Positions 31,877-64,000 of a DNA stretch of 64,000 bases are shown in pieces. Numbering within the stretch: the stretch's first letter is position 1; each line of letters starts with the position of its first letter. The DNA is from Burkholderiales bacterium (GTDB taxonomy: Bacteria; Pseudomonadota; Gammaproteobacteria; Burkholderiales; SG8-39). The notes beneath the pieces were generated by a model that did not search any database, had not been told where the DNA came from, and saw only the letters and a program-made list of their open reading frames with translations. Both the position numbers and the translations under genes were made by a program. The DNA is taken from assembly GCA_035273665.1 (NCBI GenBank), contig DATEOW010000128.1:4609-68608 (forward strand), given 5' to 3'.

Positions 31877-31908
31877 TGTTATAGGAATTGCGAGGAAGGG
31901 GCCGCCGA

Positions 31909-31924
31909 AGCATAACGGTGCCCA
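31909..31924 (-). promoter_or_regulatory. Weak sigma54-like motif upstream of the DUF748 gene
   Basis: Minus strand TGGGCACCGTTATGCT. GG-N10-GC spacing is correct but the -24 box is shifted. -12 is about 34 nt from the ATG at 31876. Confidence 0.3.
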
Positions 31925-31961
31925 TGATCCATTTCAATGCTCACGCTTCAACCCTATTCGG

Positions 31962-32222
31962 TCATTGGGCGCGGCGTTTATTTCGGAGGAACAGCCCTTG
32001 GCCAATCAGCGCGCTGATGAAAATGAACGCATTCGTGGCAACAAACACCCAGTTCTCCACGAGATAGCTGTACACCGTGAACCCGGCCGCCGCAATGGTC
32101 TGGCCGATGAATAGCGATGCGGACACGCCTTCAACATGTGTATCCGTCCATTGTTTCTGCACCTGCCGGACGATGGTATAGAGCAGAATCGCCGCGCTCC
32201 CCCAGCCGATCGCTTCAGTCAT
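31962..32222 (-). CDS. Small 3-TM membrane protein, PQ-loop/SemiSWEET-like
   Basis: 86 aa from MTEAIGW (AAAGGTGA RBS). Three TM helices. The ORF-track start at 32501 is an artefactual extension across the promoter region. Confidence 0.4.
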   Translation of the reverse strand: MTEAIGWGSAAILLYTIVRQVQKQWTDTHVEGVSASLFIGQTIAAAGFTVYSYLVENWVFVATNAFIFISALIGQGLFLRNKRRAQ

Positions 32223-32252
32223 CGTTTCACCTTTTGTTCGCGAGTCCAGGGC

Positions 32253-32268
32253 GGCAAGCCCTGTGCCC
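32253..32268 (-). promoter_or_regulatory. sigma54 -24/-12 promoter (SemiSWEET-like gene)
   Basis: Minus strand gGGCACagggcTTGCc. -12 is about 32 nt upstream of the ATG at 32222. Nearly identical to the PRC-barrel promoter at 41851-66. Confidence 0.7.
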
Positions 32269-32286
32269 GCGACCTGTGGACGCGGT

Positions 32287-32302
32287 GGGCATGGGTGCTG
32301 CA
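32287..32302 (+). promoter_or_regulatory. sigma54 -24/-12 promoter (isochorismatase-family gene)
   Basis: gGGCATgggtgCTGCA, back-to-back with the promoter at 32253-68. The predicted TSS at about 32312 favours ATG 32323, which is preceded by GGAG. Confidence 0.55.
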
Positions 32303-32322
32303 GCAAGCGCGCCATGGAGAAA

Positions 32323-32898
32323 ATGGCAAAACGGCTGCACGGCGCGAAACCGACGAAACATCGATATGCGTTGCTGCTCATCGATTTCATCAATGATCTC
32401 GACTTTCCGAGCAGTGCACGATTGCTGCCGCAAGCGATTGCGGCCGCCAGGGAGACGGCCGCGCTGAAAGCCCGCGCTAGCCGAGCGGGGGTCCCGGTCA
32501 TTTACGTCAATGACAATTTCGGCCGTTGGCAATCGCATTTCGAACAGGTCGTCGCGCATTGCCTTCGTAAAGGGACTAAGGGCCGTGAAGTGACTGCTCT
32601 GGTAAAACCGCGCAAGGATGACTACTTCATTCTCAAACCGCGGCATTCCGCGTTCTATCAGACGCCATTACCCTTGCTGCTTGAGGATTTGGGGGCAAAG
32701 AATCTGATTCTCACCGGCGTATTGACCGATTCCTGCGTTCTGTTCAGTGCCAACGATGCTTATCTGCGCGGCTACAAGATTTTCGTTCCGGAGGATTGCG
32801 TGGCTTCTCTTGAAGCGCAGCATACGGAAGAGGCGCTCGACTATATGCGCCGTTCGCTGAAAGCCGATACGAGAGCTGCGGCGAACATCGCCCTTTAA
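32323..32898 (+). CDS. Isochorismatase-family cysteine hydrolase
   Basis: ALLLIDFINDLDF (catalytic Asp region), K in FILKPRHSAF, nucleophile Cys in GVLTDSCVLFSA. Start chosen from promoter geometry (alternatives 32314 and 32263). Confidence 0.75.
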   Translation: MAKRLHGAKPTKHRYALLLIDFINDLDFPSSARLLPQAIAAARETAALKARASRAGVPVIYVNDNFGRWQSHFEQVVAHCLRKGTKGREVTALVKPRKDDYFILKPRHSAFYQTPLPLLLEDLGAKNLILTGVLTDSCVLFSANDAYLRGYKIFVPEDCVASLEAQHTEEALDYMRRSLKADTRAAANIAL

Positions 32899-32908: not shown

Positions 32909-32924
32909 GGGCATGGGTATTGCA
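32909..32924 (+). promoter_or_regulatory. sigma54 -24/-12 promoter (Pro-rich protein gene)
   Basis: gGGCATgggtaTTGCA, 11 nt after the isochorismatase stop. -12 is about 70 nt upstream of the ATG at 32993. Confidence 0.7.
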
Positions 32925-32992: not shown

Positions 32993-33358
32993 ATGATGAC
33001 CACGACACATCCTGACGATCCGGTCGAAATCAAAGATCCGCCGACTAATCCGCAAATCCCGATGAGCGCACCAGTGGATAGCCAGCCGGGCGCGCAAGGC
33101 GATACTGAATGGCAGCGCCCTTATCAAGACAGCCCTGGGCCCGATACGCTTGCGCAGACTCCCGGACCCTTCGAGCCCGAGCGGAAGCATGATTCGCCCG
33201 GGAAGATTCCCATGCAGCCGCCGGCGGAGCCGCCGAATCCCAACCCCGTGCACGTGCCAAGCACGCCGCCGACTCCTGGCGATCTTCCTTCGAGTAATCC
33301 GGATGTGGTCGGCGAGCGGGCGCTTAACGACAGCCGACCGAAAGAAACGACGGAATAA
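32993..33358 (+). CDS. Proline-rich low-complexity hydrophilic protein (hypothetical)
   Basis: 121 aa, about 25% Pro, no TM or signal peptide. GAGAGGAAGA RBS and its own sigma54 motif. Confidence 0.5.
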   Translation: MMTTTHPDDPVEIKDPPTNPQIPMSAPVDSQPGAQGDTEWQRPYQDSPGPDTLAQTPGPFEPERKHDSPGKIPMQPPAEPPNPNPVHVPSTPPTPGDLPSSNPDVVGERALNDSRPKETTE

Positions 33359-33369: not shown

Positions 33370-34104
33370 TTAGCCCATCGCTGGAATTGCTTCGCGCGCG
33401 CGCTTAGCGGCGGCTGCGACATCTTCAACTAGCATTTTGTAGGCAACTTCCGATTCGCCGCCCCGTAGACGCAGCACGTACGCCGGATGAATGGTCACCA
33501 TGGTAGGAATTCCTGTTGCCGTTTTAAGCGTATGACCGCGATGTTCGCCGACGCGAACCGTGGCGCCGATAACCGCTTTAGCCGCGGTTGCTCCCAGACA
33601 GAGGATGACATGCGGTGCGACCAACTCGAGCTCTGCATCGAGCCAGGGTAAGCAAGCGGAGATTTCGCGCTGCACCGGTGTTTTATGCATGCGGCGTTTT
33701 CCGCGCAATTCCCACTTGAAGTGCTTCACCGCGTTGGTCAGATAAATCATGTCGCGAGAAACGCCTGCCATGGCTAAGGCTTTTTCGAGCAGTTGGCCCG
33801 CGGGACCAACGAAGGGATGGCCTTCCAAGTCCTCGTTGTGACCAGGCTGTTCACCGACGACGAATAGAGGCGCGTGTTTGCCGCCTTCGCCGAAAACGGT
33901 CTGCGTCGCCCCGCGCCAGAGCGGACACGCGCGACAACCCATCGCAGTGTCGCGCAGAACCTCGAGGGACACTCGCGAATGCGGTGGCGCCGCTTCTCGC
34001 ACTTCAGGGCCTGGCGCGCGTTGGGGCGGCGCATCAAAGCGGAAATGCTTGAGCGGGTTCTCGCTAACGCTACCGGGGGTCGCGCCGCGGCGGGATGGGG
34101 GCAT
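33370..34104 (-). CDS. Family-4-type uracil-DNA glycosylase of the UdgX subclass
   Basis: Motif A GEQPGHNED (UdgX-type GEQPG, not GEAPG), PFVGPAG, loop insertion GKRRMH (compare the KRRIH loop of UdgX), motif B HPAYVLR, Fe-S Cys ligands (GCRACPLW, SACLPW). ATG at 34104 preferred over the track's TTG at 34116. Confidence 0.65.
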   Translation of the reverse strand: MPPSRRGATPGSVSENPLKHFRFDAPPQRAPGPEVREAAPPHSRVSLEVLRDTAMGCRACPLWRGATQTVFGEGGKHAPLFVVGEQPGHNEDLEGHPFVGPAGQLLEKALAMAGVSRDMIYLTNAVKHFKWELRGKRRMHKTPVQREISACLPWLDAELELVAPHVILCLGATAAKAVIGATVRVGEHRGHTLKTATGIPTMVTIHPAYVLRLRGGESEVAYKMLVEDVAAAAKRAREAIPAMG

Positions 34105-34138: not shown

Positions 34139-34154
34139 TGCAAGCGCTAGGCCT
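34139..34154 (-). promoter_or_regulatory. sigma54 -24/-12 promoter (UdgX-like gene)
   Basis: Minus strand aGGCCTagcgcTTGCA. It lies 16 nt downstream of the AI-2E gene stop codon. -12 is about 36 nt from the ATG at 34104. Confidence 0.55.
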
Positions 34155-34169: not shown

Positions 34170-35315
34170 TCAGGCCTTGCCGATTATTTCCGCAAGCGGA
34201 CGCATGTTCTCGATTTGGCTGGCGCAGATACGTAAAGCCACAAGTAGCGGTACGGCGATGAGTACACCGATGGCGCCGCCAAGCCAACCCCATATCAATA
34301 CCCAGACAAAGATGACGACCGGATTAATCGAGAATCGGTCGCCCATGATCAGCGGCTCGGCGACTTGCCCCTCGAGAAAATGCAAGACGAGGAAAACGGC
34401 GGGCGGTGCCATGATGGCGCCGGGCTGATCGAAAGTGAATAAAGCGACGAGAGTGATCACCGCTAGCGCGATGATCGGACCTAAGTAAGGAACGAAGTTC
34501 AGCAAAGCCGCCATGACGCCCCAAAGTAAAGGCGTGGGCATTCCCAGGGCCCACATCGCGAGGCTAGTCGCAATGCCGAGGCCGATGCTCAAAAAAGTGA
34601 TTGTCAAAAAGTAACGGCCGATTTCAGTTTGTATTTCGCGCGCGATCTCGACGACCCGGATCTTGTCGCGCAATCTCGGCATGATGCGAACGGTCTTGCG
34701 CAAAAACGTATCACCCGAGGCGAGCAGGAAGTACGCAAGCATCAATGTGGTCAAGAGGGTGAAGATACTTTCTTGTGCGCTCAGAACCATGTCAAACGAG
34801 CCGCCGCGTTCCACCACAACTTCACGCTTTTTACTCATATCCGTCGGCGAAGCGATTTGAGCGACCTTGTCCGCGACTTCTTGCATCGACTGCATCGGTT
34901 TCACGAAGGCGCGCAGCTTTCGTTCGATCATGCGCAAGTCGGAAGGTCCGAAGCTCGCCCATTTTTGCACCGGTTCATACAAGTTTGCAGCCAACCCTCC
35001 AACCAGCCCGATGACGCTCAGCATGACAATCGCGGCCGCGAGCACTTGGGGGATGCGCACTCGCACCAATGCTTTCACTGCCGGGGCCAGCAATAGCGCG
35101 AGCAAAGCGGCGACGACTATGGAAAGGATCAATCCTGTCGCTGCGTGCACGGCATACGCAACGCCCACAATCAGTGCGGCCCAACCGATGCGGCTCACTG
35201 CAACGTTCGTCGTCACAAGAGGCGGTTGGGTCGGTACGTCGACGGCGCGTACTTCGTCCTCGTCGATAGGGTCGGCGGCGGAAAGGCCGCCGCTATAAGG
35301 CGGTTGAGCGGCCAT
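34170..35315 (-). CDS. AI-2E family transporter (PerM/UPF0118)
   Basis: Eight-TM protein with a C-terminal AI-2E-like region (NFVPYLGP). ATG 35315 chosen because GTG 35345 lies upstream of the TSS predicted from the motif at 35349-64. Confidence 0.75.
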   Translation of the reverse strand: MAAQPPYSGGLSAADPIDEDEVRAVDVPTQPPLVTTNVAVSRIGWAALIVGVAYAVHAATGLILSIVVAALLALLLAPAVKALVRVRIPQVLAAAIVMLSVIGLVGGLAANLYEPVQKWASFGPSDLRMIERKLRAFVKPMQSMQEVADKVAQIASPTDMSKKREVVVERGGSFDMVLSAQESIFTLLTTLMLAYFLLASGDTFLRKTVRIMPRLRDKIRVVEIAREIQTEIGRYFLTITFLSIGLGIATSLAMWALGMPTPLLWGVMAALLNFVPYLGPIIALAVITLVALFTFDQPGAIMAPPAVFLVLHFLEGQVAEPLIMGDRFSINPVVIFVWVLIWGWLGGAIGVLIAVPLLVALRICASQIENMRPLAEIIGKA

Positions 35316-35348: not shown

Positions 35349-35364
35349 GGCAAGCGGAGTGCCG
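35349..35364 (-). promoter_or_regulatory. sigma54 -24/-12 promoter (AI-2E transporter gene)
   Basis: Minus strand cGGCACtccgcTTGCc. -12 is about 35 nt upstream of the ATG at 35315. Back-to-back with 35397-412. Confidence 0.65.
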
Positions 35365-35396: not shown

Positions 35397-35412
35397 CGGC
35401 ATGTGTCTTGCA
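35397..35412 (+). promoter_or_regulatory. sigma54 -24/-12 promoter (DUF1328 small-protein gene)
   Basis: cGGCATgtgtcTTGCA. -12 is about 65 nt upstream of the ATG at 35476. Confidence 0.7.
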
Positions 35413-35443
35413 CCGCACGGGCGCGGTACCGCACGGGCGCGGT
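35412..35443 (+). repeat. Tandem 2 x 16-bp unit, each internally palindromic, in the DUF1328 5' UTR
   Basis: ACCGCACGGGCGCGGT twice in tandem (ACCGC/GCGGT arms), starting at the -12 element. It is followed by GCGGTAGCTCG, which recurs at 35701-11 upstream of the next gene. Confidence 0.8.
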
Positions 35444-35475
35444 AGCTCGACCTTTTCCCAGTCGACGAGGGCAGC

Positions 35476-35646: not shown

Positions 35647-35662
35647 AGGCACGGGGGTTGCT
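35647..35662 (+). promoter_or_regulatory. sigma54 -24/-12 promoter (Gln/Ser/Gly-rich protein gene)
   Basis: aGGCACgggggTTGCT. -12 is about 80 nt upstream of the ATG at 35741. The -12 box overlaps the small hairpin GTTGCT-cct-AGCAAC. Confidence 0.7.
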
Positions 35663-37800: not shown

Positions 37801-37816
37801 GGGCACGGGCTTTGCA
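37801..37816 (+). promoter_or_regulatory. sigma54 -24/-12 promoter (OsmB-like lipoprotein gene)
   Basis: gGGCACgggctTTGCA. -12 is about 38 nt upstream of the ATG at 37853. Confidence 0.75.
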
Positions 37817-38517: not shown

Positions 38518-38533
38518 AGCAGCCGGCATGCCG
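38518..38533 (-). promoter_or_regulatory. sigma54 -24/-12 promoter (secreted S/T-rich protein gene)
   Basis: Minus strand cGGCATgccggCTGCT. -12 is about 37 nt upstream of the ATG at 38482. Back-to-back with the rpoN promoter. Confidence 0.5.
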
Positions 38534-38541: not shown

Positions 38542-38557
38542 TGGCATAGGTCTTGCG
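38542..38557 (+). promoter_or_regulatory. sigma54 -24/-12 promoter upstream of rpoN itself
   Basis: TGGCATaggtcTTGCG. -12 is about 74 nt upstream of the rpoN ATG at 38630. Confidence 0.75.
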
Positions 38558-38629: not shown

Positions 38630-40096
38630 ATGGCTATTGCACTAGAAATGAGGCAAAAACAGCAGCTCGCCCTAACACCGCAGCTGCAACATGCCTTGAA
38701 GCTTCTCCAACTTTCCGCGCTGGAATTCGCGCAGGAAATGGGCGAGGCGATGAACAATAATCCTTTCATTGAGGAAGTCCCTCAAACCAAGACGGCGACC
38801 GCGGAAGTGCCGTTAGGCGTCCCTTCCGCCCCTGCGGCTGAAGTGCCGGTTGAGAGCGTTGTTTCACCGAGCGGCGCGACCACCGACATGGAAGGCGATC
38901 ACGATGGCGAAGAGCGCCTGGGCTACGAGTCCGCAACCTTTTCCAGCAACGGTTCCAGCGACGGCGACGGCGATTGGACGGACTGGAGTGAGCCGGAACC
39001 GACGCTACATGCCCACCTGCGCGAACAATTGCTGCTGTCGCAGCTTGGCGAACGCGACCGCGCCTTGGCGCATTTCATTGTCGATGCGCTCGACGACGAT
39101 GGTTATATCAAGCAGGAACTTGATGAGCTCGTAGACATCACACTTTCTGAACACGGTGTCACGGTTGACGATTTGCGCATGGCCCTTAAGTTGGTCCAGA
39201 CCCTGGATCCTCCGGGGATCGGCGCACGCAATTTAGAGGAGTGCCTCATGTTGCAACTCAACAATCACAAGGACAACCCGCGTGTGCACGAGGCTGCGAG
39301 CAAAATCGTGCAGAAACACCTGCAGGTGCTGGGCGCGCATGAGTTAGGCAAGCTGCAACAGCTCGTCGGTTGCGACGAAGACACCTTGCACAATGCGGTC
39401 GCGCTCATCCGCTCCCTCGATCCCAAGCCGGGATTGCGGTTTGGATCCGGCGAAGCGCGTTTCGTCGTGCCTGACGTCATGGTGAACAAGATTCGCGGCA
39501 AGTGGACAGTCACAATGAATCCCGCGGTGATGCCGCGTTTGCGAATCAACCGGAGCTACGCCGAAGCGCTGGCCGGCGGACAAAACAGCTATCTCACTAA
39601 ACAGCTCCACGAAGCGCGTTGGCTCTTGCGCAGCATGGAGCAGCGCTTCGTGACCATCCAGCGTGTTGCAGAAGCAATCGTTTCCCGCCAGAAGCTCTTT
39701 TTTGAATACGGCGAAGTCGCGATGAAGCCGATGGCGCTTAAACATGTCGCCGCGCAATTGGGCGTCCACGAATCCACGGTCTGCCGTGTGACAAATAATA
39801 AGTTCATGGCGACGCCTCGCGGTGTTTTCGAGTTCAAACATTTCTTCTCCCGTACGCTTTCCACGGACGCAGGTGGAGCGGCATCGGCCACGGCGGTGCG
39901 CGCTTTGTTGAAGGAAATGATCAATACGGAAAGTCCGACGCAGCCCTTGTCGGATGCACGCCTAGCGACTTTATTGTCTGAGCAAGGACTGCGGGTCGCC
40001 CGGCGCACCATAACCAAGTACCGCACGTTGATGCGGGTGCCTAGCGTCGAGGTCCGCCGTGCGCTCGGTAAACAAGCCGCCCGTGCCGCGGCCTGA
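38630..40096 (+). CDS. rpoN: RNA polymerase sigma-54 factor (RpoN), non-canonical genomic context
   Basis: ATG after GGAGGG. Region I MRQKQQLALTPQLQHALKLLQLS, an acidic region II, a core-binding region, an HTH, and the RpoN box ARRTITKYR. No lptB, hpf or ptsN neighbours. Confidence 0.92.
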   Translation: MAIALEMRQKQQLALTPQLQHALKLLQLSALEFAQEMGEAMNNNPFIEEVPQTKTATAEVPLGVPSAPAAEVPVESVVSPSGATTDMEGDHDGEERLGYESATFSSNGSSDGDGDWTDWSEPEPTLHAHLREQLLLSQLGERDRALAHFIVDALDDDGYIKQELDELVDITLSEHGVTVDDLRMALKLVQTLDPPGIGARNLEECLMLQLNNHKDNPRVHEAASKIVQKHLQVLGAHELGKLQQLVGCDEDTLHNAVALIRSLDPKPGLRFGSGEARFVVPDVMVNKIRGKWTVTMNPAVMPRLRINRSYAEALAGGQNSYLTKQLHEARWLLRSMEQRFVTIQRVAEAIVSRQKLFFEYGEVAMKPMALKHVAAQLGVHESTVCRVTNNKFMATPRGVFEFKHFFSRTLSTDAGGAASATAVRALLKEMINTESPTQPLSDARLATLLSEQGLRVARRTITKYRTLMRVPSVEVRRALGKQAARAAA

Positions 40097-40107: not shown

Positions 40108-40701
40108 ATGTCTCAAATCGTTGCAGGTTGGTTTTCCACGCATGACCAAGCCGAGGAAGCGATGGCTGCGCTTGCTCGCGCCGGGTTTGTCGCCAGTGAA
40201 TACGAGTCCTTTTATCTCGCGCCGCCCGGACAACACGGCAGCGTTCCTTTTGGAGACGAAGTTCACCACGACGAAGGCGCCAGCGAAGTAGGCGGTGGAG
40301 CAGTCAAAGGTGCAGCTGTAGGCGGTGTCCTCGGCCTCGCAGCGGGTGCGGCCGTCGCGGCCGCAACCGCGCCTTTAGGTCCGGCCGCTGTCGTCGCGGG
40401 GGCCGGCATCGGTGCCTACGTGGGTTCGCTCGCAGGCGCTGTGAACAAAACCCATGACGGTGAGTTAGAGGAAGCAAGCGTTGAGGAGCCGGTCGAAAGA
40501 CCCGCCGGCGCACTCGTCGCAGTCTGTGTAGACCGCGGCGGCAGCGAGGCGCAGGCCATTGCCACGTTGCGCGCACAGGGCGCAGGCGGCGTCGAGAAAG
40601 CAGAAGGTGAATGGCGCGACGGACATTGGCAGGACTTCGATGCACGTGTGCCGCCGCATGTCTTGGGTGGAGGCGATCTGCCGCGCCCGGGTGCGTATTA
40701 A
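40108..40701 (+). CDS. Gly/Ala-rich stress protein with YflT/GSP17M-like N-terminal domain (hypothetical)
   Basis: The N-terminus IVAGWFSTHDQAEEAMAALARAGF resembles the general-stress-protein-17M fold. Starts 11 nt after the rpoN stop, so it is probably co-transcribed. Confidence 0.4.
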   Translation: MSQIVAGWFSTHDQAEEAMAALARAGFVASEYESFYLAPPGQHGSVPFGDEVHHDEGASEVGGGAVKGAAVGGVLGLAAGAAVAAATAPLGPAAVVAGAGIGAYVGSLAGAVNKTHDGELEEASVEEPVERPAGALVAVCVDRGGSEAQAIATLRAQGAGGVEKAEGEWRDGHWQDFDARVPPHVLGGGDLPRPGAY

Positions 40702-41850: not shown

Positions 41851-41866
41851 GGCAAGCGCTGTGCCC
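41851..41866 (-). promoter_or_regulatory. sigma54 -24/-12 promoter (PRC-barrel gene pair)
   Basis: Minus strand gGGCACagcgcTTGCc. -12 is about 73 nt upstream of the ATG at 41779. Confidence 0.7.
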
Positions 41867-41889: not shown

Positions 41890-41905
41890 AGGCATGGCGA
41901 GTGCA
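41890..41905 (+). promoter_or_regulatory. sigma54 -24/-12 promoter (PA2169-family...topoisomerase IB operon)
   Basis: aGGCATggcgaGTGCA. -12 is about 54 nt upstream of the ATG at 41958. Back-to-back with 41851-66. Confidence 0.5.
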
Positions 41906-43312: not shown

Positions 43313-43314
43313 AG

Positions 43315-44427
43315 ATGGTCGACCAGGCCCTGGCCGACGCGGGTTTATGCTTTAGCTCGGACAACGATCCGGGTATCCGGCGTAAACGGAGCGGCCGGGG
43401 TTTTTCATACGTGGACGAGAATGGCGTGCGGATCGAGGACGAATCGGTTCTGCAACGCATTCGTTCACTCGCCATTCCACCGGCCTACAAAGAGGTGTGG
43501 ATTTGCACCAAGGCCAATGGTCATCTGCAAGCGACCGGGATCGATGCACGAGGGCGCAAACAATACCGCTATCACCCAGACTGGCGTGCGGTGCGCGATG
43601 CGGATAAATTCGCGCGCCTTTGCGATTTCGGGCGTGCATTGACCCGAATACGCAAGCGCGTCAGTGCAGATCTGAAGCTCCCGGGTTTGGCACGTGACCG
43701 TGTGATCGCGACCGTCGTACGGCTGTTGGATCGCACTTCTATTCGCATCGGCAACGAACAGTACGCACGCGAGAATAAGTCTTACGGCCTCACGACCTTG
43801 CGCACGCGCCATGTCCGCCTGCGCGGAAACCTTATCCAATTTGAGTTCCGGGGCAAGTCAGGCGTACTCCATTCGATTTCAGTGACGGACCCGCTGGCCG
43901 CAGAGGTGGTGAGAGGCTGTCTTGATTTGCCTGGGCAAGAACTTTTTCAATACCTCGACGACACGGGCGCACGACGCACGGTGACGTCTTCGGATGTCAA
44001 CGCCTATTTATGCGCGGCAGGGGGGCAGGATTTCAGTGCAAAGGACTTCCGCACTTGGTATGCGACCATGGATGCGCTGGAGATGCTCAGCGCTTTGCAG
44101 TTCGAGACGCAGCGGGAAGCGAAGGCGCACATTAAGGAAAGTCTTCATCGCATCGCACAACGCCTGGGAAACACGCCGACGATGTGCCGCAAGGCCTACG
44201 TCCATCCGGGAGTGTTGCAGGCTTTTATGGAAGGTCGTTTAAGCAGCGTCGTGCGCGCTGGCCGGCGCAATAAACGGGAACAGCTCTTGCAACTTTTGCA
44301 GGACCTCTCTCGGGGCGCGTCGCGGCTCGCCAAGCAACCAAAAAAAACAAGAAGCTCGGCCCGTCCGGCAGTCCCGAAGGCAAGAGCTTTTAACCTATCG
44401 CAAGTAAAGGAGCAGATATGGCTGTAG
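43315..44427 (+). CDS. DNA topoisomerase IB (poxvirus/eukaryote-like bacterial TopIB)
   Basis: IPPAYKEVWI...ATGIDARGRKQYRYHP, RIGNEQYARENKSYGLTTLR, FRGKSG, FSAKDFRTW, and the catalytic-Tyr motif CRKAYVHP. Confidence 0.85.
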   Translation: MVDQALADAGLCFSSDNDPGIRRKRSGRGFSYVDENGVRIEDESVLQRIRSLAIPPAYKEVWICTKANGHLQATGIDARGRKQYRYHPDWRAVRDADKFARLCDFGRALTRIRKRVSADLKLPGLARDRVIATVVRLLDRTSIRIGNEQYARENKSYGLTTLRTRHVRLRGNLIQFEFRGKSGVLHSISVTDPLAAEVVRGCLDLPGQELFQYLDDTGARRTVTSSDVNAYLCAAGGQDFSAKDFRTWYATMDALEMLSALQFETQREAKAHIKESLHRIAQRLGNTPTMCRKAYVHPGVLQAFMEGRLSSVVRAGRRNKREQLLQLLQDLSRGASRLAKQPKKTRSSARPAVPKARAFNLSQVKEQIWL

Positions 44428-55008: not shown

Positions 55009-55024
55009 TGCAACCCCTATGCCG
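55009..55024 (-). promoter_or_regulatory. sigma54 -24/-12 promoter of the nine-gene glycosylation operon
   Basis: Minus strand cGGCATaggggTTGCA. -12 is about 40 nt upstream of the ATG at 54970. An AT-rich tract (55030-55075) lies between it and the palindrome at 55162-88. Confidence 0.7.
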
Positions 55025-55188: not shown

Positions 55189-55259
55189 AAGATGTCTAGC
55201 GGCAAGATGTGTAGCGGCAAGATGTCTAGCGGCGCGGTGTCTAGCGGCGCGGTGTCTAG
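55185..55259. repeat. Five contiguous 15-bp direct repeats
   Basis: CGGCAAGATGTCTAG / CGGCAAGATGTGTAG / CGGCAAGATGTCTAG / CGGCGCGGTGTCTAG / CGGCGCGGTGTCTAG. The array abuts the palindrome on the left and the -24 GG of the SDR promoter on the right. Confidence 0.9.
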
Positions 55260-55273
55260 GTATGCGCCTTGCG
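55258..55273 (+). promoter_or_regulatory. sigma54 -24/-12 promoter (SDR gene)
   Basis: aGGTATgcgccTTGCG. -12 is about 33 nt upstream of the ATG at 55305 (GGAG RBS). Confidence 0.55.
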
Positions 55274-56161: not shown

Positions 56162-56177
56162 TGGCCCGATTGCTGCG
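56162..56177 (+). promoter_or_regulatory. Possible sigma54 -24/-12 promoter upstream of the activator gene
   Basis: TGGCCCgattgCTGCG, 8 nt after the SDR stop and about 119 nt upstream of the ATG at 56295. Confidence 0.4.
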
Positions 56178-56294: not shown

Positions 56295-57695
56295 ATGCCC
56301 CACGTTTTGCTCGTCGATGACGATCCAGAAACCCTGGAATGGATGTCCGAATTTGCGAAGGCTGAAGGTTTTACCGTGGCCAAAGCGGGTTCTTTGCGCG
56401 CTGCGCGTATACAGCTTGCGCAAAAGAAACCCGATGTGTTGATCGCCGACTTGCAACTGCCCGACGGAGAAGGGGTGGAACTGGCCACGGATTTGGAGGA
56501 ACTCGAAGGTGTCGAGTTCGTCATGGCCACCGGCCACGCGACGGTAGAAAGCGCGGTGAACGCCTTGCGGCTGGGCGCAACCGATTATCTGACCAAACCG
56601 GTCGACCTAGATCGTTTGCGCGCCATTCTTCAGCGTGTTCCGGGCACCACAGAATTGCGCGAAGAGATCGGCGAGTTGCGTCAAGAACTGCGCGGACTCG
56701 GCCGCTTCGGCCACATCCTCGGCAATTCGCCGGTGATGCACAAACTTTATGATCAACTCGGTCGCGTGGCGCCTACTTCCGCAACGGTGCTGCTAATCGG
56801 CGATAGCGGTACAGGTAAAGAACTTGCGGCACAGACCATCCATGACTTGAGCCGTCGCAAAAAACATCCCTTCCTGCCGCTTAACTGCGGCGCAATGTCC
56901 CCCAATCTGATCGAAAGCGAACTTTTCGGCCATGAAAAGGGCAGTTTCACGGGTGCAGACCGGCAGCATGTCGGCTTTTTTGAACGCGCGAACGGTGGAA
57001 CTTTATTTCTCGACGAAATCACCGAAATGCCCATCGAGCTGCAAGTCAAATTGCTCCGCGTCCTCGAAACGGGTGCCTTCATGCGAGTCGGGACCAACAC
57101 ACCGATCGCGACGGATGTCCGTGTGATTGCAGCAACGAACCGCAGTCCGATGAAAGCGGTGGCTGACGGGAAATTGCGTGAAGACCTTTATCACCGCTTA
57201 AACGTATTCCCGATCAATATGCCGCCACTGCGCGAACGCGGGACGGATATCGAATTTCTGGCGCAGCATTTCTTGGATAAGCTCAATCGTGACGAGGGTT
57301 CACAAAAAGCTTTTTCGCCCGCTGCGCTCGCCGCTCTTTACGCGCATAGCTGGCCGGGCAATGTGCGCGAATTGAAAAACTATGTACAGCGCGTCTACAT
57401 TCTGGCCGATCGTCTAATCGATGTTGAATTCGCACCGCGCATTTTTGCCGATCCTGACCCGAAACCGATTTTGACCGTGCGAGTCGGCAGTACGCTGGAA
57501 GAGGTTAATCGCCGACTGGTCGAAGCGACCATGGCCGAATGCGGCAACGTCCGACGCAAAGCTGCCGAAATGCTCGGCATCAGTCTTAAGACGCTGTATA
57601 ACCGCCTCGCTCAATACAACGCAGAAAAAAATGGCGGGGCAATCGAACCGCTTGAAGACGAGGACATGTACGAGCCGAGCGAAGCACGCTCTTAA
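56295..57695 (+). CDS. sigma54-dependent response regulator (NtrC family: REC-AAA+-Fis HTH), no adjacent kinase
   Basis: REC (LLVDDD...LIADLQLPDG...KP). AAA+ with Walker A GDSGTGKE, sigma54-contact loop GSFTGA (variant of GAFTGA), Walker B LFLDEI. C-terminal HTH AAEMLGISLKTLYNRL. Confidence 0.92.
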   Translation: MPHVLLVDDDPETLEWMSEFAKAEGFTVAKAGSLRAARIQLAQKKPDVLIADLQLPDGEGVELATDLEELEGVEFVMATGHATVESAVNALRLGATDYLTKPVDLDRLRAILQRVPGTTELREEIGELRQELRGLGRFGHILGNSPVMHKLYDQLGRVAPTSATVLLIGDSGTGKELAAQTIHDLSRRKKHPFLPLNCGAMSPNLIESELFGHEKGSFTGADRQHVGFFERANGGTLFLDEITEMPIELQVKLLRVLETGAFMRVGTNTPIATDVRVIAATNRSPMKAVADGKLREDLYHRLNVFPINMPPLRERGTDIEFLAQHFLDKLNRDEGSQKAFSPAALAALYAHSWPGNVRELKNYVQRVYILADRLIDVEFAPRIFADPDPKPILTVRVGSTLEEVNRRLVEATMAECGNVRRKAAEMLGISLKTLYNRLAQYNAEKNGGAIEPLEDEDMYEPSEARS

Positions 57696-57704: not shown

Positions 57705-57720
57705 CGGTACACGGCTTGCA
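57705..57720 (+). promoter_or_regulatory. sigma54 -24/-12 promoter (GlsB/YeaQ-like gene)
   Basis: cGGTACacggcTTGCA, 10 nt after the activator stop. -12 is about 34 nt upstream of the ATG at 57753. Confidence 0.6.
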
Positions 57721-58687: not shown

Positions 58688-58703
58688 TGCAATGCCTATA
58701 CCC
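58688..58703 (-). promoter_or_regulatory. sigma54 -24/-12 promoter (hemerythrin gene)
   Basis: Minus strand gGGTATaggcaTTGCA. -12 is about 52 nt upstream of the ATG at 58637. Confidence 0.55.
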
Positions 58704-58716: not shown

Positions 58717-58732
58717 TGGTATGCCTTATGCA
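58717..58732 (+). promoter_or_regulatory. sigma54 -24/-12 promoter (58761 hydrophilic protein gene)
   Basis: TGGTATgccttATGCA. -12 is about 30 nt upstream of the ATG at 58761. Back-to-back with 58688-703. Confidence 0.5.
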
Positions 58733-59043: not shown

Positions 59044-59059
59044 GGGCACGTGCCTTGCG
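59044..59059 (+). promoter_or_regulatory. sigma54 -24/-12 promoter (elaB/yqjD-yqjE-yqjK-like operon)
   Basis: gGGCACgtgccTTGCG, starting 2 nt after the upstream stop. -12 is about 63 nt upstream of the ATG at 59121. Confidence 0.7.
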
Positions 59060-59426: not shown

Positions 59427-59435
59427 GAGATTCTT

Positions 59436-60273: not shown

Positions 60274-62202
60274 CTACTGTTTCGTTCCCTTGACACCTTC
60301 GCCCCGTGCGATTTTTGCGAAGGCGGCGCAATCGCTATTTTCACCAGGTCCCGTTTCGATCAAGGGTATGAGCGCCAATAACGGGTTCACCAATCCGAGC
60401 GCCACGGCGGCCCCGCCGCGCGCCACGAGCGGCCCCGCCTGCGGTCTTACTTTCGGGTCATTGAAGTGGCCTGTCACCATCAGTGGTGTACGGGCGACGA
60501 GAACGCTGCGGTCTTTGGGCTGCGGCACGACCCGCAGATCGAGCGCTTCCTGATCCAGATCAACTTTTCCTTCGAGAATAAACACAGTGTCGACGGTATC
60601 GATCACCGCAATTTCAGGAACGGCTTGCCCGCTCTTGAGGTTGAAGTCGGCGATGGCGCACCGAAGCGGTACGGGTTTATCTCCGCGAGAAAAGAGAATG
60701 GCGAGCGCCTCGCCGGCGTCCAATCCCGCGAGCTCGAGTAGCAGCGCGCTCATATGACCGCCGTTAACCATTAACGTCACTTCACCGTTTGACGTTGCGG
60801 CCATTCTTGCGATGGATGCGCCTCGCGCATCAAGCTTGACGCGGCCAAACAGTTTCCCCGCCGCTGCGCGCTGTTGATCGAGCTTGGGAAACATTTGGGC
60901 GAGCTCGAGTTTGTCGATGGTGAAGGAAGCAAGCGCCCGCGGTGGGGATTCCTTGCCTTCAATGGAGATATCCGAGCGGATGGTTCCGCTCGCCATCTCG
61001 AAATTGAGCGGTTGCAAACTCAGTTTGGAGTCGTCGATTTTCAAGTGCGCGCTCAACGCATTAATAGGCACCGCATTCGAACGCTTCACACGGTCCGCAC
61101 GAAAGCGGACGTCCGCATCCATTCTTGGCCATTTATCGATTCCGAGTGGTTTGCTCGGTAACACACGGTCGGTGGCGGCCACTTGTCGCGCTTGTGCTTT
61201 TTGCTCCGGAGATGCGGTTTCCCCCGCTTTGGTTTTTGGCGGGGCGCCGACGAGCGGGCCCAAATCGTCGAAGTCGAGTAAATGCGAATAGAGATCCGCA
61301 CGTAGAAGCGGTCGCGGGTCTCGCTTTACATAGGCCAATTGCCCATTGATGTCGCTATCTCCGATGCGTCCCTCAAACGGTGAGAAGTCCCAAGTGTTAT
61401 TGGCAAAAGCCAAGCGGCCACGTAATTTATAGGGCGGCGTACCCGGTAGATTGATGCCCAGTTGATTGAGCTCGGCAAGATCGTCACCGGCCAAACCCAA
61501 TTGCACGTCCATACCCTCGAAACCGAGCTCGCGCAGATACCCAACCGCTACGGCCGTGGTATGACCGAGCGTCGCGGCCGCGGAAACACGGGTAGGCGAA
61601 GCAGGGCTCGGCAGTTGCGCCGGCGTGCTTAAAACAACCCGCATCGGCGCATCGCGGAACTTGCCCTCGGCTTGCACATGCACCTCGTCGCCGCCGCCCA
61701 CACCGCCGAAGACATCCACGTCCATCTCGGTTTTTTCGTCACGGTCGCGGTAATACACGCTGGTGTCGACGATACTGATATGACGCGCGCGAACGCGGCT
61801 TGGGCCGTCGTCCTCTTCTTTTTCATCCATTTCCCAGGTGACGCGATCGCCCTCGCGCTCCAGACCAAGTCGCGTCGCTTCCACGCGTGCCTCTTTGAAA
61901 TCCAGACGTCCGATGAAAAGCGGAAGCCAGGCGGCGCAACCGCTCAAACTACGACTATCGACAAGTGCCGGAGTTTTGGCCCAACCAGGGTTTGTGATGC
62001 GCACATCTTCGGCACCCAGATACAGGCAACTACCCACGCGTATTTCGATGTTTCCGATGTGCGCCTCGCGACCGGTATCGGCGGCAATTCGCCGTTCCAC
62101 AAAGCGCTCAAGCCAATTCGCATCGGCGAGGAGGGCGACACACGCGACGATAGCGGCGAGGACAAGGATGCTGCCGAGCAAGAGCTTATGCGCGCGCTTC
62201 AT
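60274..62202 (-). CDS. AsmA-family envelope protein
   Basis: Start MKRAHKLLLGSILVLAAIVACVALL (N-terminal anchor). AsmA-like beta-rich body and C-terminal AsmA_2-like region. Overlaps the yihY-like stop, so it is in the same operon. Confidence 0.7.
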   Translation of the reverse strand: MKRAHKLLLGSILVLAAIVACVALLADANWLERFVERRIAADTGREAHIGNIEIRVGSCLYLGAEDVRITNPGWAKTPALVDSRSLSGCAAWLPLFIGRLDFKEARVEATRLGLEREGDRVTWEMDEKEEDDGPSRVRARHISIVDTSVYYRDRDEKTEMDVDVFGGVGGGDEVHVQAEGKFRDAPMRVVLSTPAQLPSPASPTRVSAAATLGHTTAVAVGYLRELGFEGMDVQLGLAGDDLAELNQLGINLPGTPPYKLRGRLAFANNTWDFSPFEGRIGDSDINGQLAYVKRDPRPLLRADLYSHLLDFDDLGPLVGAPPKTKAGETASPEQKAQARQVAATDRVLPSKPLGIDKWPRMDADVRFRADRVKRSNAVPINALSAHLKIDDSKLSLQPLNFEMASGTIRSDISIEGKESPPRALASFTIDKLELAQMFPKLDQQRAAAGKLFGRVKLDARGASIARMAATSNGEVTLMVNGGHMSALLLELAGLDAGEALAILFSRGDKPVPLRCAIADFNLKSGQAVPEIAVIDTVDTVFILEGKVDLDQEALDLRVVPQPKDRSVLVARTPLMVTGHFNDPKVRPQAGPLVARGGAAVALGLVNPLLALIPLIETGPGENSDCAAFAKIARGEGVKGTKQ

Positions 62203-63154
62203 TGCCGTCTCTTTCATTGATGTGCTGTTGTCGTTCGGCAGTATTGCCGGCGTTTTCCGCGATTCGGTCTGCACGTACCTTGTTGTATTCGGCGCCAATC
62301 AACAATGCTTGGCTGCAGTAGTAGACCCACATCAGAACGATGACGAGCGATCCCGCCGCACCGTAGGCGTCGGTGAAGCCTTCGCGGCCCAGGTAAAGCC
62401 CGACGAGGTGTTTGCCCACGACGAAAAGTATCGCGCTGAGCAAAGCGCCCGGCCAAAGTGAGACGCGGCGCGGCTGAATACTAGGCAACCACCGCAGTAG
62501 CATCATGAAGAGACCGGAGATAATGGCGAGGGAAACCAGGGTGTCTAGCACGAGCACGACGGTTGCGAGCACCGGCATCGTGTCGCCCAACCAGGCCGCG
62601 AAAGCCGATAAGGCCGCGCTCAGCGCGAGCGATACAAGCGCCACAAAACCCACTGCGAGGACCAATGCAAAGGAAATCAGTCTTGCCTTGACCATCCAAG
62701 AAAGGCCATGTTTGATTTCCGTCGATTCCTTGTTGATGGTGTCGAGCGCATTGCGCAACTCTAGGAACACGCCGGTTGCGCCGACGAAAAGCGTCACAAA
62801 ACCCACGATGGCGCCCGTCCACTGACGTGTTTCGCTGACCATCGCTGTATCCAGCATGTTCTCGATGGTGTCGGCGCTACCGGACCCAATCAGTCCGCCA
62901 ACTTGTGAAACGATTTGGGAGCGTGCCGCATCGACGCCGAAAGCAATCCCCGCGACCATGACAGCCATGGCCAATAGGGGCGCCAAGGAGAAAATCGAGT
63001 AGAACGCGATGGACGCGCCTAAGCGTAGGCATTGATCGTTGCTCCATGCAGACAGTACCGCTAAAGGCGTTCGCGCCTTATGCTTCAGCCTTCCCAAAAG
63101 GGAACGTGGAGGGGAAGTCTGCGCTGGTAGGGCTGATGCCATAGGATGGGGCAT
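62186..63154 (-). CDS. YihY/BrkB-family membrane protein
   Basis: Start MPHPMASAL. LGASIAFYSIFSLAPLL and six TM helices characteristic of YihY. Confidence 0.75.
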   Translation of the reverse strand: MPHPMASALPAQTSPPRSLLGRLKHKARTPLAVLSAWSNDQCLRLGASIAFYSIFSLAPLLAMAVMVAGIAFGVDAARSQIVSQVGGLIGSGSADTIENMLDTAMVSETRQWTGAIVGFVTLFVGATGVFLELRNALDTINKESTEIKHGLSWMVKARLISFALVLAVGFVALVSLALSAALSAFAAWLGDTMPVLATVVLVLDTLVSLAIISGLFMMLLRWLPSIQPRRVSLWPGALLSAILFVVGKHLVGLYLGREGFTDAYGAAGSLVIVLMWVYYCSQALLIGAEYNKVRADRIAENAGNTAERQQHINERDGNEARA

Positions 63155-63207
63155 GACGCGCCGGGCGCGCACACTCTGGGGTTCTTGTTCTAGACAGAGC
63201 AGGTTTT

Positions 63208-63223
63208 TGCAAGGCACATGCCT
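63208..63223 (-). promoter_or_regulatory. sigma54 -24/-12 promoter (yihY-asmA operon), overlapping its partner on the opposite strand
   Basis: Minus strand aGGCATgtgccTTGCA. -12 is about 55 nt upstream of the ATG at 63154. Confidence 0.65.
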
Positions 63224-63227
63224 TGCC
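63212..63227 (+). promoter_or_regulatory. sigma54 -24/-12 promoter (polytopic membrane protein gene at 63256)
   Basis: aGGCACatgccTTGCc. -12 is about 30 nt upstream of the ATG at 63256. It shares 12 of its 16 bp with the minus-strand promoter. Confidence 0.65.
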
Positions 63228-63255
63228 ATAAGTACAAACAAGCAGGCCAAGAACA

Positions 63256-64000
63256 ATGAAAGAAATCGTACTGCCGCATTTCACCGAGGAAGGCGCGCCG
63301 GAAGCGGAGGATGTTGCCGCGCGGCGGGCTGTGCTCGTCCGCACCTTCACCGCTAGCGCTTATGTCGCCGCATTACTCGCTTGCGGTCTTGCGATTGCGG
63401 CATTGCTTGCTGACGTTTCCGGTTATTACCTTGTGCTTGCCCGCTGGGACGGCTGGCCCCATGTGAGGTTGCTCGACGCAGCCTGCGTGCTGCTCTCCTC
63501 GGTTTCAGTGCTCATGCAACAACGAAGGGATCCGGCGAGGCGCATTTGGGCACCTATTCTTTTTGCGCTCACTGTCCTGATCCTGTTACTGGTTTTGCTT
63601 TGGCCGGGGATTCACGGCGGCATGCTCGAACATGCAATGGCCCGTTACCCCGCAGTAGCCTTGTTGACCCTTCAGGTGGCGTTGATCGGCGGCTATCTGG
63701 CCGGTGACTGGGGGCGCATGATCGCGCGCGTTTTCGGCGCGGCAGTCGCGGTACTCGGTTTTTGCGGTCTGCTTGGCGTCGGATTCCGGCTCTCGCTCGG
63801 GATGCCGCCGCTGATGCAACTCTCCTTCCCCGGCGGCATCGCGCTCATCTTGCTGGGTTACAGCATGTTGGTGGGCCGCTCCGACCGTTGGCTGGCGGAA
63901 CAGCTCACCAGTACGCGGCCGTCCGCAATTCTCATTCGCCGTCTGTTGCCGGTCGTCGTCGTACTGCCGGTGTTGTTGGCGGTCGTTCGTGTCTGGGCAC
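63256..64000 (+). CDS. Polytopic membrane protein, N-terminal part (3' end outside window); possibly the sensor module of a signalling protein
   Basis: My translation of frame 1 from ATG 63256 is open to the window end (MKEIVLPHFTEEGAPEAEDVAARRAVLVRTFTASAYVAALLACGLAIAALL...). It has at least 6 hydrophobic helices and resembles the N-terminus of the GGDEF protein at 15180. It is not in the ORF track because there is no stop in the window. Confidence 0.55.
   Translation, partial: MKEIVLPHFTEEGAPEAEDVAARRAVLVRTFTASAYVAALLACGLAIAALLADVSGYYLVLARWDGWPHVRLLDAACVLLSSVSVLMQQRRDPARRIWAPILFALTVLILLLVLLWPGIHGGMLEHAMARYPAVALLTLQVALIGGYLAGDWGRMIARVFGAAVAVLGFCGLLGVGFRLSLGMPPLMQLSFPGGIALILLGYSMLVGRSDRWLAEQLTSTRPSAILIRRLLPVVVVLPVLLAVVRVWA

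Follow-up and report, generated by a model that had tools for sequence, protein, structure and literature searches.

A 64,000-nt stretch of contig DATEOW010000128.1 from a soil genome, the Burkholderiales bacterium assembly GCA_035273665.1 (forward strand, positions 4,609 to 68,608), referred to as the window in the following, contains a putative regulatory island built around a gene that encodes sigma-54 (rpoN). The left half of the window encodes ordinary chromosomal functions such as ClpB, MoeA/MobB, a tungstate ABC transporter, kinases, and CorA. The right half carries the rpoN gene, a gene for an NtrC-type enhancer-binding protein, the 5' part of a gene for a membrane-bound PAS hybrid kinase, and a series of short transcription units preceded by -24/-12 motifs of the sigma-54 type. 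The window and a further 3.7 kb constitute the examined sequence of the source genome. Gene calls were carried over from the metagenome contigs L001 and L002, which are 99.4-99.7% identical to the window, and protein families were assigned with the curated cut-offs of Pfam and NCBIfam. No Rfam matches were obtained in the window.

The exact motif GGCAY-N5-TTGC, searched on both strands, occurs 13 times in the window compared to 2.06 +/- 1.32 times in 100 dinucleotide shuffles with a maximum of six, and 12 of the 13 matches are located within 32254-63226. As the GC content is flat across the window (0.55-0.60), this enrichment is not compositional. The same 12 motifs had been listed in a first-pass annotation made from the DNA letters, and they were recovered here with coordinates shifted by +1. 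A relaxed scan of the region 28.3-64 kb, in which GG-N10-GC and at least four of the five other consensus bases were required while the base at -26 was left free, yielded 19 matches in about 2 kb of intergenic DNA versus 8 weaker ones in 33.7 kb of coding DNA. This comparison of coding DNA and gaps, on which the first-pass annotation had made its claim dependent, corresponds to an approximately 40-fold enrichment of sites in gaps. All 19 intergenic matches face a start codon, with the -12 GC located 13-98 nt upstream when the start of the YihY gene is placed at 63154. Three further sites (44277-44290, 58718-58731, and 56162-56175) were accepted only through conserved geometry. The total thus amounts to about 21-22 sites, 12 of them exact and about nine near-exact, which agrees with the 22 sites counted initially. 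All of them face starts, as had been claimed for every motif, here at distances of 13-128 nt; among the approximately 21 sites, only 44277-44290 is not intergenic and lies within the 3' end of the TopIB gene. The sites have GG and GC 10 nt apart in a TGGCAC-N5-TTGC context and are located upstream of genes and oriented toward them, the T of TGGCAC being mostly replaced by G, C, or A.

The density of exact motifs is 3.7-4.7 per 10 kb in the right half of the window and in related islands. A control set of 79 acidobacterial rpoN loci (1.416 Mb), which were distant matches of the same genome scan, contains 35 exact motifs or 0.25 per 10 kb; this density comparison was also run in a weight-matrix version. 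For the 5.8-Mb genome of Ralstonia GMI1000, Ray et al. reported 79 consensus matches, 40 of which are located upstream of genes (PMC4371752). Sigma-70-like promoters are few in the region 31.8-45.3 kb (2 found versus 5.2 expected), and hairpin-plus-T-run terminators end several of the units (Table 1).

The motifs are conserved in related loci, which were grouped according to the identity of their RpoN proteins to the one in the window: 77% for L003, L084, and L085, 61-68% for L086, L089, L091, and L096, and 56-58% for L088, L090, and L097. Further loci originate from Ralstonia (L083), B. multivorans (L093), B. pyrrocinia (L094), and B. stagnalis (L095). The promoters of the window are found again at orthologous positions in eight related loci with 56-77% RpoN identity. 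The loci of the three identity groups contain 10-18 intergenic sites per about 21 kb facing gene starts, and these sites often recur before genes for RpoN and for OsmB-like lipoprotein, PRC-barrel, DUF2383, DUF1328, uracil-DNA glycosylase (UDG), AI-2E, and hemerythrin proteins. Conservation extends to the L003/L084/L085 genome with a GC content of 69% versus 58% for the window. In an alignment of the rpoN upstream regions from the window, three loci of metagenome-assembled genomes (MAGs), and Ralstonia solanacearum (five genomes; alignment A1), the sole invariant block, Ralstonia included, is the promoter core GGCA..G...TTGC. This conservation provides the strongest evidence that the sites may be regarded as functional elements. 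Judged from their location in gaps, their orientation toward starts, and their conservation at orthologous positions, they behave as genuine sigma-54 promoters.

The gene for RpoN is accompanied by genes for the activator and a PAS kinase in those MAG loci that reach far enough, in Ralstonia, and in B. pyrrocinia. The related islands differ from one another in gene content and gene order. In B. pyrrocinia, rpoN2, an activator pair, a kinase, and genes for PRC-barrel, CBS, DUF1328, and DJ-1 proteins are found behind sigma-54 motifs, and the island adjoins trehalose and glycogen genes. A 3.17-Mb record of B. stagnalis proved to hold a further locus of the RpoN2 type, in which rpoN2 is combined with PRC-barrel and DUF4142 genes. 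The island of B. multivorans contains an activator pair, a glycosyltransferase operon, a short-chain dehydrogenase/reductase (SDR; 59%), DUF4142, UdgX, and BON genes, and six exact motifs.

The left 28 kb of the window contain no convincing sigma-54 site, which is in line with the initial description of the left half as nearly motif-free. One weak match upstream of mobB had been mentioned there. The 13th exact match (19183-19196, minus strand) lies inside the mobB open reading frame (ORF) on the opposite strand and was rejected as a promoter. The sole candidate in this part is GGAAT-N5-TTGC at 11588-11601, which precedes by 30 nt an in-frame ATG (11631) in the gene for a DUF2243 membrane protein; GGAAC/GGAAT variants also precede entericidin and M48 peptidase genes in related islands. 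A minus-strand site at 11391, which falls within the signal-peptide-encoding region of a 765-aa ORF, is probably due to chance. A candidate upstream of the AsmA/DUF748 gene (31829-31961) was also rejected, because the GGCAC register places the -12 GC one base too close and the flanking consensus bases misfit in the GG-N10-GC register. The same interval contains the sigma-70-like sequence TTGAAA-17-TATGCT.

The rpoN product shares 100% identity with HKO88429.1, a protein of a Burkholderiales MAG that also holds HKO88448.1. Among studied proteins, its closest relatives are the RpoN2 proteins of Ralstonia and Burkholderia. PF00309, PF04963, and PF04552 all match it, and its residues 4-478 (of 488) align to Klebsiella sigma-54 structures (E = 3.5e-106), indicating a complete sigma-54. 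Its identity amounts to 50% with RpoN2 of Ralstonia, which was the best match in a plasmid collection, and 43-49% with RpoN2 of Burkholderia, versus 37-38% with the housekeeping RpoN of E. coli (37%), Aeromonas, and Acinetobacter, a housekeeping set that is gammaproteobacterial and includes no betaproteobacterial RpoN1. The gene is flanked by genes for a 116-aa and a 197-aa protein instead of lptB, hpf, or ptsN, has its own sigma-54 promoter, and lies near a gene for an RSp1667-type activator. Because of these identities and this context, the sigma factor is assigned by homology to the known RpoN2 group, and the same features suggest that it is a paralog in the source organism. Soil metagenomes contain the family in abundance (7738 proteins at E <= 1e-60), and the best 120 of these 7738 homologs are 54-100% identical to the query. 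An RpoN box of the type ARRT[IV]TKYR is found in these best 120 homologs and in Burkholderia RpoN2, and the box is ARRTVAKYR in Ralstonia RpoN2, Klebsiella, and the 79 acidobacterial RpoN proteins. The gene for the 197-aa protein directly follows rpoN in at least six related loci (L084, L088, L089, L090, L091, and L097) as well. It takes the position that hpf has in housekeeping rpoN operons, and a 36%-identical homolog is encoded in the B. multivorans island.

The activator has DDD at residues 8-10, Asp52, and a GSFTGA variant of the GAFTGA loop, which place it in the NtrC class; no NCBIfam equivalog model was matched at the cut-off. It shares 63% identity with the protein encoded beside rpoN2 in Ralstonia and 56-60% with the Burkholderia and Paraburkholderia proteins. 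A different regulator, YelR (BPSL1887) of B. pseudomallei, is encoded on chromosome 1 beside pilus genes and was rejected as an ortholog of the activator. The initial assignment of a sigma-54 factor and an NtrC-type activator to this region is borne out by complete sets of Pfam domains in both proteins. The activator had also been described as an orphan, which is no longer tenable because the gene for a 1107-aa PAS hybrid kinase, preceded by a motif of its own, begins at 63256. The islands of Ralstonia, B. pyrrocinia, and B. multivorans as well as L084 and L090 also encode kinases related to it. This kinase is the likely sensor for the activator. A hybrid kinase may require an Hpt protein, of which none was seen.

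A palindrome GTAA-N3-TTAC occurs once in the window (56226-56236), 69 nt before the start codon of the activator gene. In six of six related loci containing the activator gene, it is again present at a distance of 60-120 nt before the start codon (L086 15942, L088 5124 and 5145, L090 2558, L091 19425, L096 20525, L097 1404). In the five relatives with a recognizable activator promoter (L086, L088, L090, L091, and L097), it is located about 50 nt downstream of the -12 element. The weak activator site of the window precedes the palindrome by 51 nt and thus has the same spacing as in the relatives. The palindrome may be an operator or leader element.

The gene families named initially were confirmed for the most part by Pfam and NCBIfam: AsmA/DUF748, UdgX, AI-2E, PLD/cardiolipin-synthase-like, glycine-zipper, two PRC, DUF4142, TopIB, SDR (PRK06701), hemerythrin, DUF883, YqjE-type, and YihY. 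The PA2169/DUF2383 and DUF1328 assignments are just under the curated cut-offs, and YeaQ/GlsB could not be confirmed. Furthermore, four low-complexity hydrophilic proteins of 120, 121, 54, and 93 aa are encoded. For the genes encoding the 54-aa and PLD/cardiolipin-synthase-like proteins (36182-37773), no promoter was found. An operon of nine genes (45178-54970, about 10 kb), which had been absent from the initial gene list, lies behind a motif and encodes GT4, HAD, GT9, carbamoyltransferase, GT2, radical-SAM/SPASM, GT9, GT1, and epimerase proteins. Its counterpart in B. multivorans, with 49-65% protein identity, is located beside the activator pair on a 744-kb replicon (L093 6981-13566 and 20426-22788). 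Related islands additionally encode HSP20, FtsH, entericidin, ferritin/Dps-like proteins, M48 peptidase, BON proteins, superoxide dismutase (SOD), AhpC-glutaredoxin, MscS, Usp, Ku, and a DksA-like protein. This cargo is the kind of content found in the regulons of RpoS, SigB, and EcfG.

Table 1. Regulator genes, predicted sigma-54 promoters, and associated features of the island (positions in the window; distances from the -12 GC to the start)
Position	Strand	Feature	Site	Remarks
32254..32267	-	Promoter of 86-aa membrane protein gene (31962-32222)	exact	Probably read through into AsmA/DUF748 (28310-31828); L084 has a like order of promoter, small gene, AsmA/DUF748
32288..32301	+	Site before isochorismatase-family hydrolase gene (32314-32898)	GGCATGGGTGCTGC, one mismatch	Orthologous site L084 5066; start or site uncertain because only 13 nt from called start
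32910..32923	+	Promoter of 120-aa proline-rich hydrophilic protein gene (32996-33358)	exact	
34140..34153	-	Site before UdgX-family gene (33370-34104)	GGCCTAGCGCTTGC, one mismatch	Relaxed scan; UdgX model TIGR03914, 258 bits; sites before UDG genes of relatives: L084 6611, B. multivorans L093 31142
35350..35363	-	Promoter of AI-2E family transporter gene (34170-35315)	exact	
35398..35411	+	Promoter of DUF1328 small membrane protein gene (35476-35637)	exact	Orthologous sites L084 6661, L090 510
35648..35661	+	Promoter of 121-aa Gln/Gly/Ser-rich hydrophilin gene (35741-36106)	exact	Terminator 36129-36152
37802..37815	+	Promoter of OsmB-like glycine-zipper lipoprotein gene (37853-38071)	exact	Terminator 38093-38119; orthologous sites L003 427, L084 8836
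38519..38532	-	Site before 116-aa secreted protein gene (38132-38482), divergent from rpoN	GGCATGCCGGCTGC, one mismatch	Relaxed scan; orthologous sites L084 9882, L003 1460
38543..38556	+	Sigma-54 promoter of rpoN	cTGGCATAGGTCTTGCg, exact	Canonical T at -26
38630..40096	+	rpoN, predicted paralog, 488 aa		RpoN box ARRTITKYR; Pfam Sigma54_AID, CBD, DBD
40108..40701	+	Gene for 197-aa protein with glycine-zipper middle		No family match; predicted to be co-transcribed with rpoN; terminator 40726-40747
41852..41865	-	Promoter of two PRC-barrel genes (41282-41779, 40775-41242)	exact	Orthologous sites L003 11081, L084 19502
41891..41904	+	Site before operon 41958-45170 (DUF2383/PA2169-like, 68-aa ElaB-like, DUF4142, TopIB, 250-aa membrane protein)	GGCATGGCGAGTGC, one mismatch	Orthologous site L084 19539; alignment A2
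44277..44290	+	Internal site in TopIB 3' end, 128 nt before 250-aa gene	GGAACAGCTCTTGC	Conserved position; counterparts at like distance: L084 21044 (125 nt), L086 14046 (120 nt)
55010..55023	-	Promoter of 9-gene operon (54970 down to 45178)	exact	
55259..55272	+	Site before YghA/YdaD-like SDR gene (55305-56153)	GGTATGCGCCTTGC, one mismatch	Relaxed scan
56162..56175	+	Degenerate sigma-54-like site before activator gene	cTGGCCCGATTGCTGC, two mismatches	Weak; T at -26
56295..57695	+	NtrC-type enhancer-binding protein gene (REC, AAA+, HTH_8)		Pfam Response_reg, Sigma54_activat, HTH_8
57706..57719	+	Site before 90-aa membrane protein gene (57753-58025)	GGTACACGGCTTGC, one mismatch	Terminator 58045-58068
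58689..58702	-	Site before hemerythrin-domain gene (58077-58637)	GGTATAGGCATTGC, one mismatch	Orthologous site L086 18245
58718..58731	+	Weak site before 93-aa hydrophilic protein gene (58761-59042)	GGTATGCCTTATGC, two mismatches	Low confidence
59045..59058	+	Promoter of operon DUF883 (ElaB/YqjD-like), YqjE-type, 139 aa (59121-60265)	exact	
60274..63154	-	YihY/BrkB gene and second AsmA-family gene		Read from minus-strand promoter 63209-63222
63209..63226	both	Two overlapping back-to-back sigma-54 promoters	GCAAGGCACATGCCTTGC, palindrome, exact	Plus strand faces kinase gene, minus strand (63209-63222) faces YihY-AsmA
63256..64000	+	5' part of 1107-aa membrane PAS-HisKA-HATPase-REC hybrid kinase gene		Continues beyond window; full gene read in L002

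The base preceding GG, at position -26, separates two classes of promoters. Among 56 aligned promoters from the window and three relatives, it is T in 5 and G in 28 cases. When 88 promoters from seven loci were sorted by target gene, T at -26 was found in 8 of the 11 promoters of regulator genes (rpoN and activator) versus 2 of the 77 cargo promoters. The pattern persists though the surrounding promoter sequence has diverged, and T is also present in the rpoN2 promoters of Ralstonia and B. pyrrocinia. L096 fits the pattern. L097 fits it partly: its activator promoter has T, as does a promoter located 520 nt (-12 GC to start) before rpoN, but T is also present in three of its cargo promoters. 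These comparisons suggest a split between regulator and cargo promoters, which is new here.

The overlapping promoter pair at 63209-63226 is also found as a single palindrome in L088 (5200-5218), L090 (2614-2632), and L097 (1460-1478). As two holoenzymes probably cannot occupy overlapping cores at the same time, this arrangement suggests that the divergent units compete or alternate. For the YihY gene, the start was revised from the called position 62968 to 63154 (MPHPM...), which is supported by a 324-aa BrkB protein of Ralstonia. Upstream of the SDR gene, an inverted repeat GATGTGTCTG/TCAGACACATC at 55165-55185 is followed by five 15-nt tandem repeats (55185-55259) of the sequence CGGCAAGATGTCTAG, degenerating to CGGCGCGGTGTCTAG. 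The last base of these repeats coincides with the first base of the -24 element before the SDR gene. The repeats may serve as an array of enhancers or operators; nothing comparable was found in the activator-upstream regions of the relatives inspected. A 16-20-nt element CGCACGGGCGCGGTA(G/C)CTCG forms a tandem pair in the DUF1328 leader (35414-35449), has a single copy in the leader of the 121-aa hydrophilin unit (35692-35711), and is absent from the L084 counterparts.

The boundaries 31900-63260 proposed initially had to be extended on both sides. The left end of the island is probably the AsmA/DUF748 gene (28310) beside a Usp gene, and the island continues past the right end of the window, where AAGGTACGCCGCTTGC is found at L002 11872, 14 nt before a gene for an 85-aa protein. 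ClpB and the Usp gene directly adjoin the left edge; because of these neighbors, stress-related content may not be confined to the sigma-54 units. A gene for a Ser/Thr kinase with a cyclic-nucleotide-binding-like C-terminus (23728-25195, minus strand) ends 18 nt from the start of ClpB. ARAGORN called an 85-nt tRNA-Thr(tgt) at 28541-28625 on the plus strand inside the minus-strand AsmA/DUF748 ORF, which is probably a false positive. The interpretation as a mobile genomic island is not supported, as the GC content is constant, no integrase was found among the proteins scanned, and the sole ARAGORN call lies inside the AsmA ORF.

Based on gene order, motifs, and homology, the region is probably a conserved regulatory island of Burkholderiales, in which an RpoN2-type sigma-54 and a dedicated two-component activator would serve about 20 short transcription units with promoters almost all of the -24/-12 type. 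The island is real, conserved, and apparently undescribed as a regulon. In accordance with the first-pass annotation, which knew of no clustered sigma-54 stress regulon, no description of an RpoN2 regulon or of a sigma-54 stress island was found in open-access papers and bioRxiv. The sigma gene itself is no novel case, as the RpoN2 group is already known and a sigma-54 promoter of its own (TGGCACAGCCTTTGCA) has been published for Ralstonia rpoN2, the expression of which is abolished in an rpoN1 mutant (PMC4371752).

According to the proposed mechanism, a signal, probably stasis, envelope, or redox state, would be perceived by the membrane PAS kinase, which would phosphorylate the activator, and the latter would open sigma-54 closed complexes. 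The genes for the sigma paralog and the activator with their canonical TGGCA promoters would be switched on first, probably by the housekeeping sigma-54, and the extra sigma-54 and activator would then drive the cargo promoters with G, C, or A at -26. The cargo would protect a non-growing cell. It would comprise small stress proteins of membrane or hydrophilic type (OsmB-like, ElaB/YqjD-like, DUF1328, PRC-barrel, and hydrophilins), proteins for envelope remodeling (two AsmA-family proteins, the cardiolipin-synthase-like PLD, YihY, and the 9-gene glycosyltransferase operon), proteins for DNA maintenance (UdgX and TopIB in the window, Ku in relatives), and redox proteins (hemerythrin in the window; ferritin, SOD, and AhpC in relatives). 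A two-tier sigma-54 cascade, in which the housekeeping sigma-54 reads the TGGCA promoters of the regulators and the cargo promoters are used only once the paralog accumulates, is suggested by the -26 split together with the published rpoN1 dependence of Ralstonia rpoN2, and is put forward tentatively. Such a cascade could arise if the paralog prefers the variant -24 element or if weak sites need a higher total amount of sigma-54.

In B. pseudomallei, an rpoN2 mutant loses stationary-phase expression of katE, and a putative RpoN box precedes this gene (PMC4745423). Together with the gene content, this link makes general stress a reasonable reading of the island. Of the initial designation as a general-stress-type regulon with sigma-54 as its master factor, the resemblance of the cargo to RpoS, SigB, and EcfG regulons stands; both labels derive from gene content.

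Several observations weigh against these interpretations. No shared activator site was found in 19 window promoters when exact dyads with half-sites of 4-6 nt and spacers of 0-15 nt were searched, and a 7/8-mer enrichment across 88 promoters from seven loci returned only the partner promoters of divergent pairs. Since no shared upstream site was found, the control of all promoters by a single activator is inferred; considering also the gaps of 57-100 nt and the overlapping promoters, its binding sites may be located in coding DNA, degenerate, or few. Mutants of Ralstonia in rpoN2 showed no metabolic or virulence phenotype (PMC4676750). The Fisher test for the -26 split gives p = 1e-7, a value that is inflated because the compared loci are related. 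The threonine-type RpoN box was rejected as a unique signature, as other sigma-54 clusters often have it too: of the 150 nearest 50%-cluster representatives, 28 carry ARRTVTKYR and 8 carry ARRTVSKYR, and the nearest one has Ala. As the Thr variant is common, it is by itself no evidence of changed specificity. Finally, T at -26 is likewise missing from the promoters of the B. multivorans island, although the 31 kb fetched there contain no rpoN. Because of this island, the local sigma factor may be dispensable, the -26 pattern may reflect promoter strength, and the activator may be the more constant core.

Instead of general stress, the island could serve a specialized program, such as survival of dormancy, desiccation, or low oxygen or a switch of surface polysaccharide or envelope, responding to one signal via the PAS kinase. 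This alternative is possible but rather doubtful. It would be consistent with the single dedicated two-component pair in the island and with the prominence of envelope genes (two AsmA-family genes, PLD, YihY, and the 10-kb glycosyltransferase operon), which fits the published view of sigma-54 as controlling the cell exterior (PMC3162934). Hemerythrin and the PAS domains hint that oxygen or the redox state is sensed, Ku and TopIB are contributed by relatives, and in B. pyrrocinia trehalose and glycogen genes lie beside the island. However, the cargo of relatives also includes functions for proteostasis (HSP20, FtsH, and M48 peptidase), oxidative defense (ferritin, SOD, and AhpC), and osmotic-type proteins (OsmB-like, BON, and MscS), and such breadth is typical of general stress regulons. 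The low-oxygen-activated (lxa) locus of B. cenocepacia was considered as the same island, and the search matches for it gave no link to sigma-54.

It is unlikely that the housekeeping sigma-54 reads the promoters and the local rpoN is a back-up or dosage copy within the regulon of the activator. In favor of such a role, the 31 kb fetched from B. multivorans are free of rpoN although the activator pair, six exact motifs, and the glycosyltransferase operon are all present in that island, and a search of the plasmid collection gave 64 Burkholderia records for the activator versus 7 for RpoN. In addition, Ralstonia RpoN2 complements an E. coli rpoN mutant and therefore reads ordinary promoters (PMC4676750), and a Thr-type RpoN box is not uncommon. 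These points are opposed by the tight co-conservation of rpoN and the downstream 197-aa gene with the island in nine MAG loci, Ralstonia, and three Burkholderia replicons, and by the fact that cargo promoters avoid T at -26 whereas regulator promoters keep it. Moreover, katE of B. pseudomallei needs RpoN2 despite the presence of RpoN1.

Even less probable is a mosaic of independent sigma-54 units that respond to different activators encoded elsewhere, with the density of sites resulting from gene accretion. The missing common upstream activator sequence and the variable gene content and order of related islands would agree with a mosaic, but the 35 kb contain a single activator gene, which is conserved along with the island, many gaps (57-100 nt) are too short for separate enhancers, and back-to-back overlapping promoter pairs recur. 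That the motif is the binding site of another regulator, as the palindromic nature of a few sites (63209-63226) might indicate, or a chance or compositional effect can practically be dismissed, because none of 100 shuffles reaches 13 matches, the sites have strict GG-N10-GC geometry, orientation, and distance with about 40-fold enrichment in gaps, and the conservation takes in the experimentally supported rpoN2 promoter of Ralstonia.

If the two-tier cascade is confirmed, it would be the first system based on sigma-54 to parallel the general stress responses of RpoS, SigB, and EcfG and would assign a function to RpoN2 of Ralstonia and Burkholderia, whose second sigma-54 genes have been known for more than a decade without a clear role. 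The window contains the fullest version of the RpoN2 neighborhood and offers a concrete and testable candidate regulon of stress, envelope, and DNA-maintenance genes together with a candidate sensor. A program resembling general stress, if confirmed, would here depend on activator-dependent sigma-54, which has essentially no basal leak and would suit a costly state of dormancy or protection. The -26 split provides an experimental handle on two sigma-54 proteins sharing one cell and may be a source of naturally insulated sigma-54/promoter pairs for synthetic biology, in which engineered RpoN-box variants are already used (PMC12096077).

Among known systems, RpoN2 of Ralstonia solanacearum (RSp1671) is likewise a second sigma-54 encoded outside the lptB-rpoN-hpf context with a TGGCA..TTGC promoter before its gene, and RSp1667 and RSp1668 have been listed as neighboring activators. 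The Ralstonia locus shares with the window the 63%-identical REC-AAA+-HTH activator, a related PAS hybrid kinase, and BrkB/YihY, DUF883, and small hypothetical genes, several of them behind sigma-54 motifs. It differs in its smaller neighborhood (about 4-5 motifs in 31 kb), the canonical ARRTVAKYR box, a second truncated activator, its location on the megaplasmid, and an RpoN identity of only 50%. RpoN2 of Burkholderia, encoded on chromosome 2 of B. pseudomallei and on large secondary replicons in B. pyrrocinia, B. arboris, and B. stagnalis, likewise has a Thr-type box (ARRTVTKYR) and is flanked by an activator pair, a kinase, and PRC-barrel, DUF1328, and DUF4142 genes behind sigma-54 motifs. 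Its identity to the sigma factor of the window amounts to 43-49%, and the cargo differs in part, with trehalose/glycogen genes and an encapsulin/DyP pair located nearby. Apart from katE no target has been published, and a regulon has not been described.

Several sigma-54 copies with separate gene sets and adjoining targets or activators are also found in Rhodobacter sphaeroides (RpoN1-4), Xanthomonas (RpoN1/2), and Bradyrhizobium sp. DOA9 (RpoNc/RpoNp), and the Rhodobacter paralogs tell promoters apart. These paralogs differ from the island in that they serve nitrogen fixation, flagella or pili, or diffuse targets, and no dense stress island with about 20 promoters has been described for them. 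The plasmid-borne RpoNp of Bradyrhizobium sp. DOA9 has been linked to stress adaptation and is said to fine-tune stress responses (PMC13207237).

Sigma-54 and a dedicated activator are known to answer envelope, RNA, or host stress in PspF-psp, RtcR-rtcBA, and Rrp2-RpoN-RpoS of Borrelia, the latter forming a sigma cascade. These modules consist of one or two promoters and a single housekeeping sigma-54. The regulons of RpoS, SigB, and EcfG share with the island cargo of the types OsmB, ElaB/YqjD-YqjE, YtjA/DUF1328, YghA-type SDR, PRC-barrel, and hydrophilins as well as BON, Dps/ferritin, Ku, and catalase. However, they depend on sigma factors of the sigma-70 family without an ATP-driven activator, are regulated by partner switching or proteolysis, and are scattered on the chromosome, whereas the promoters of the island are clustered and of the -24/-12 type, which strictly needs an enhancer-binding ATPase.

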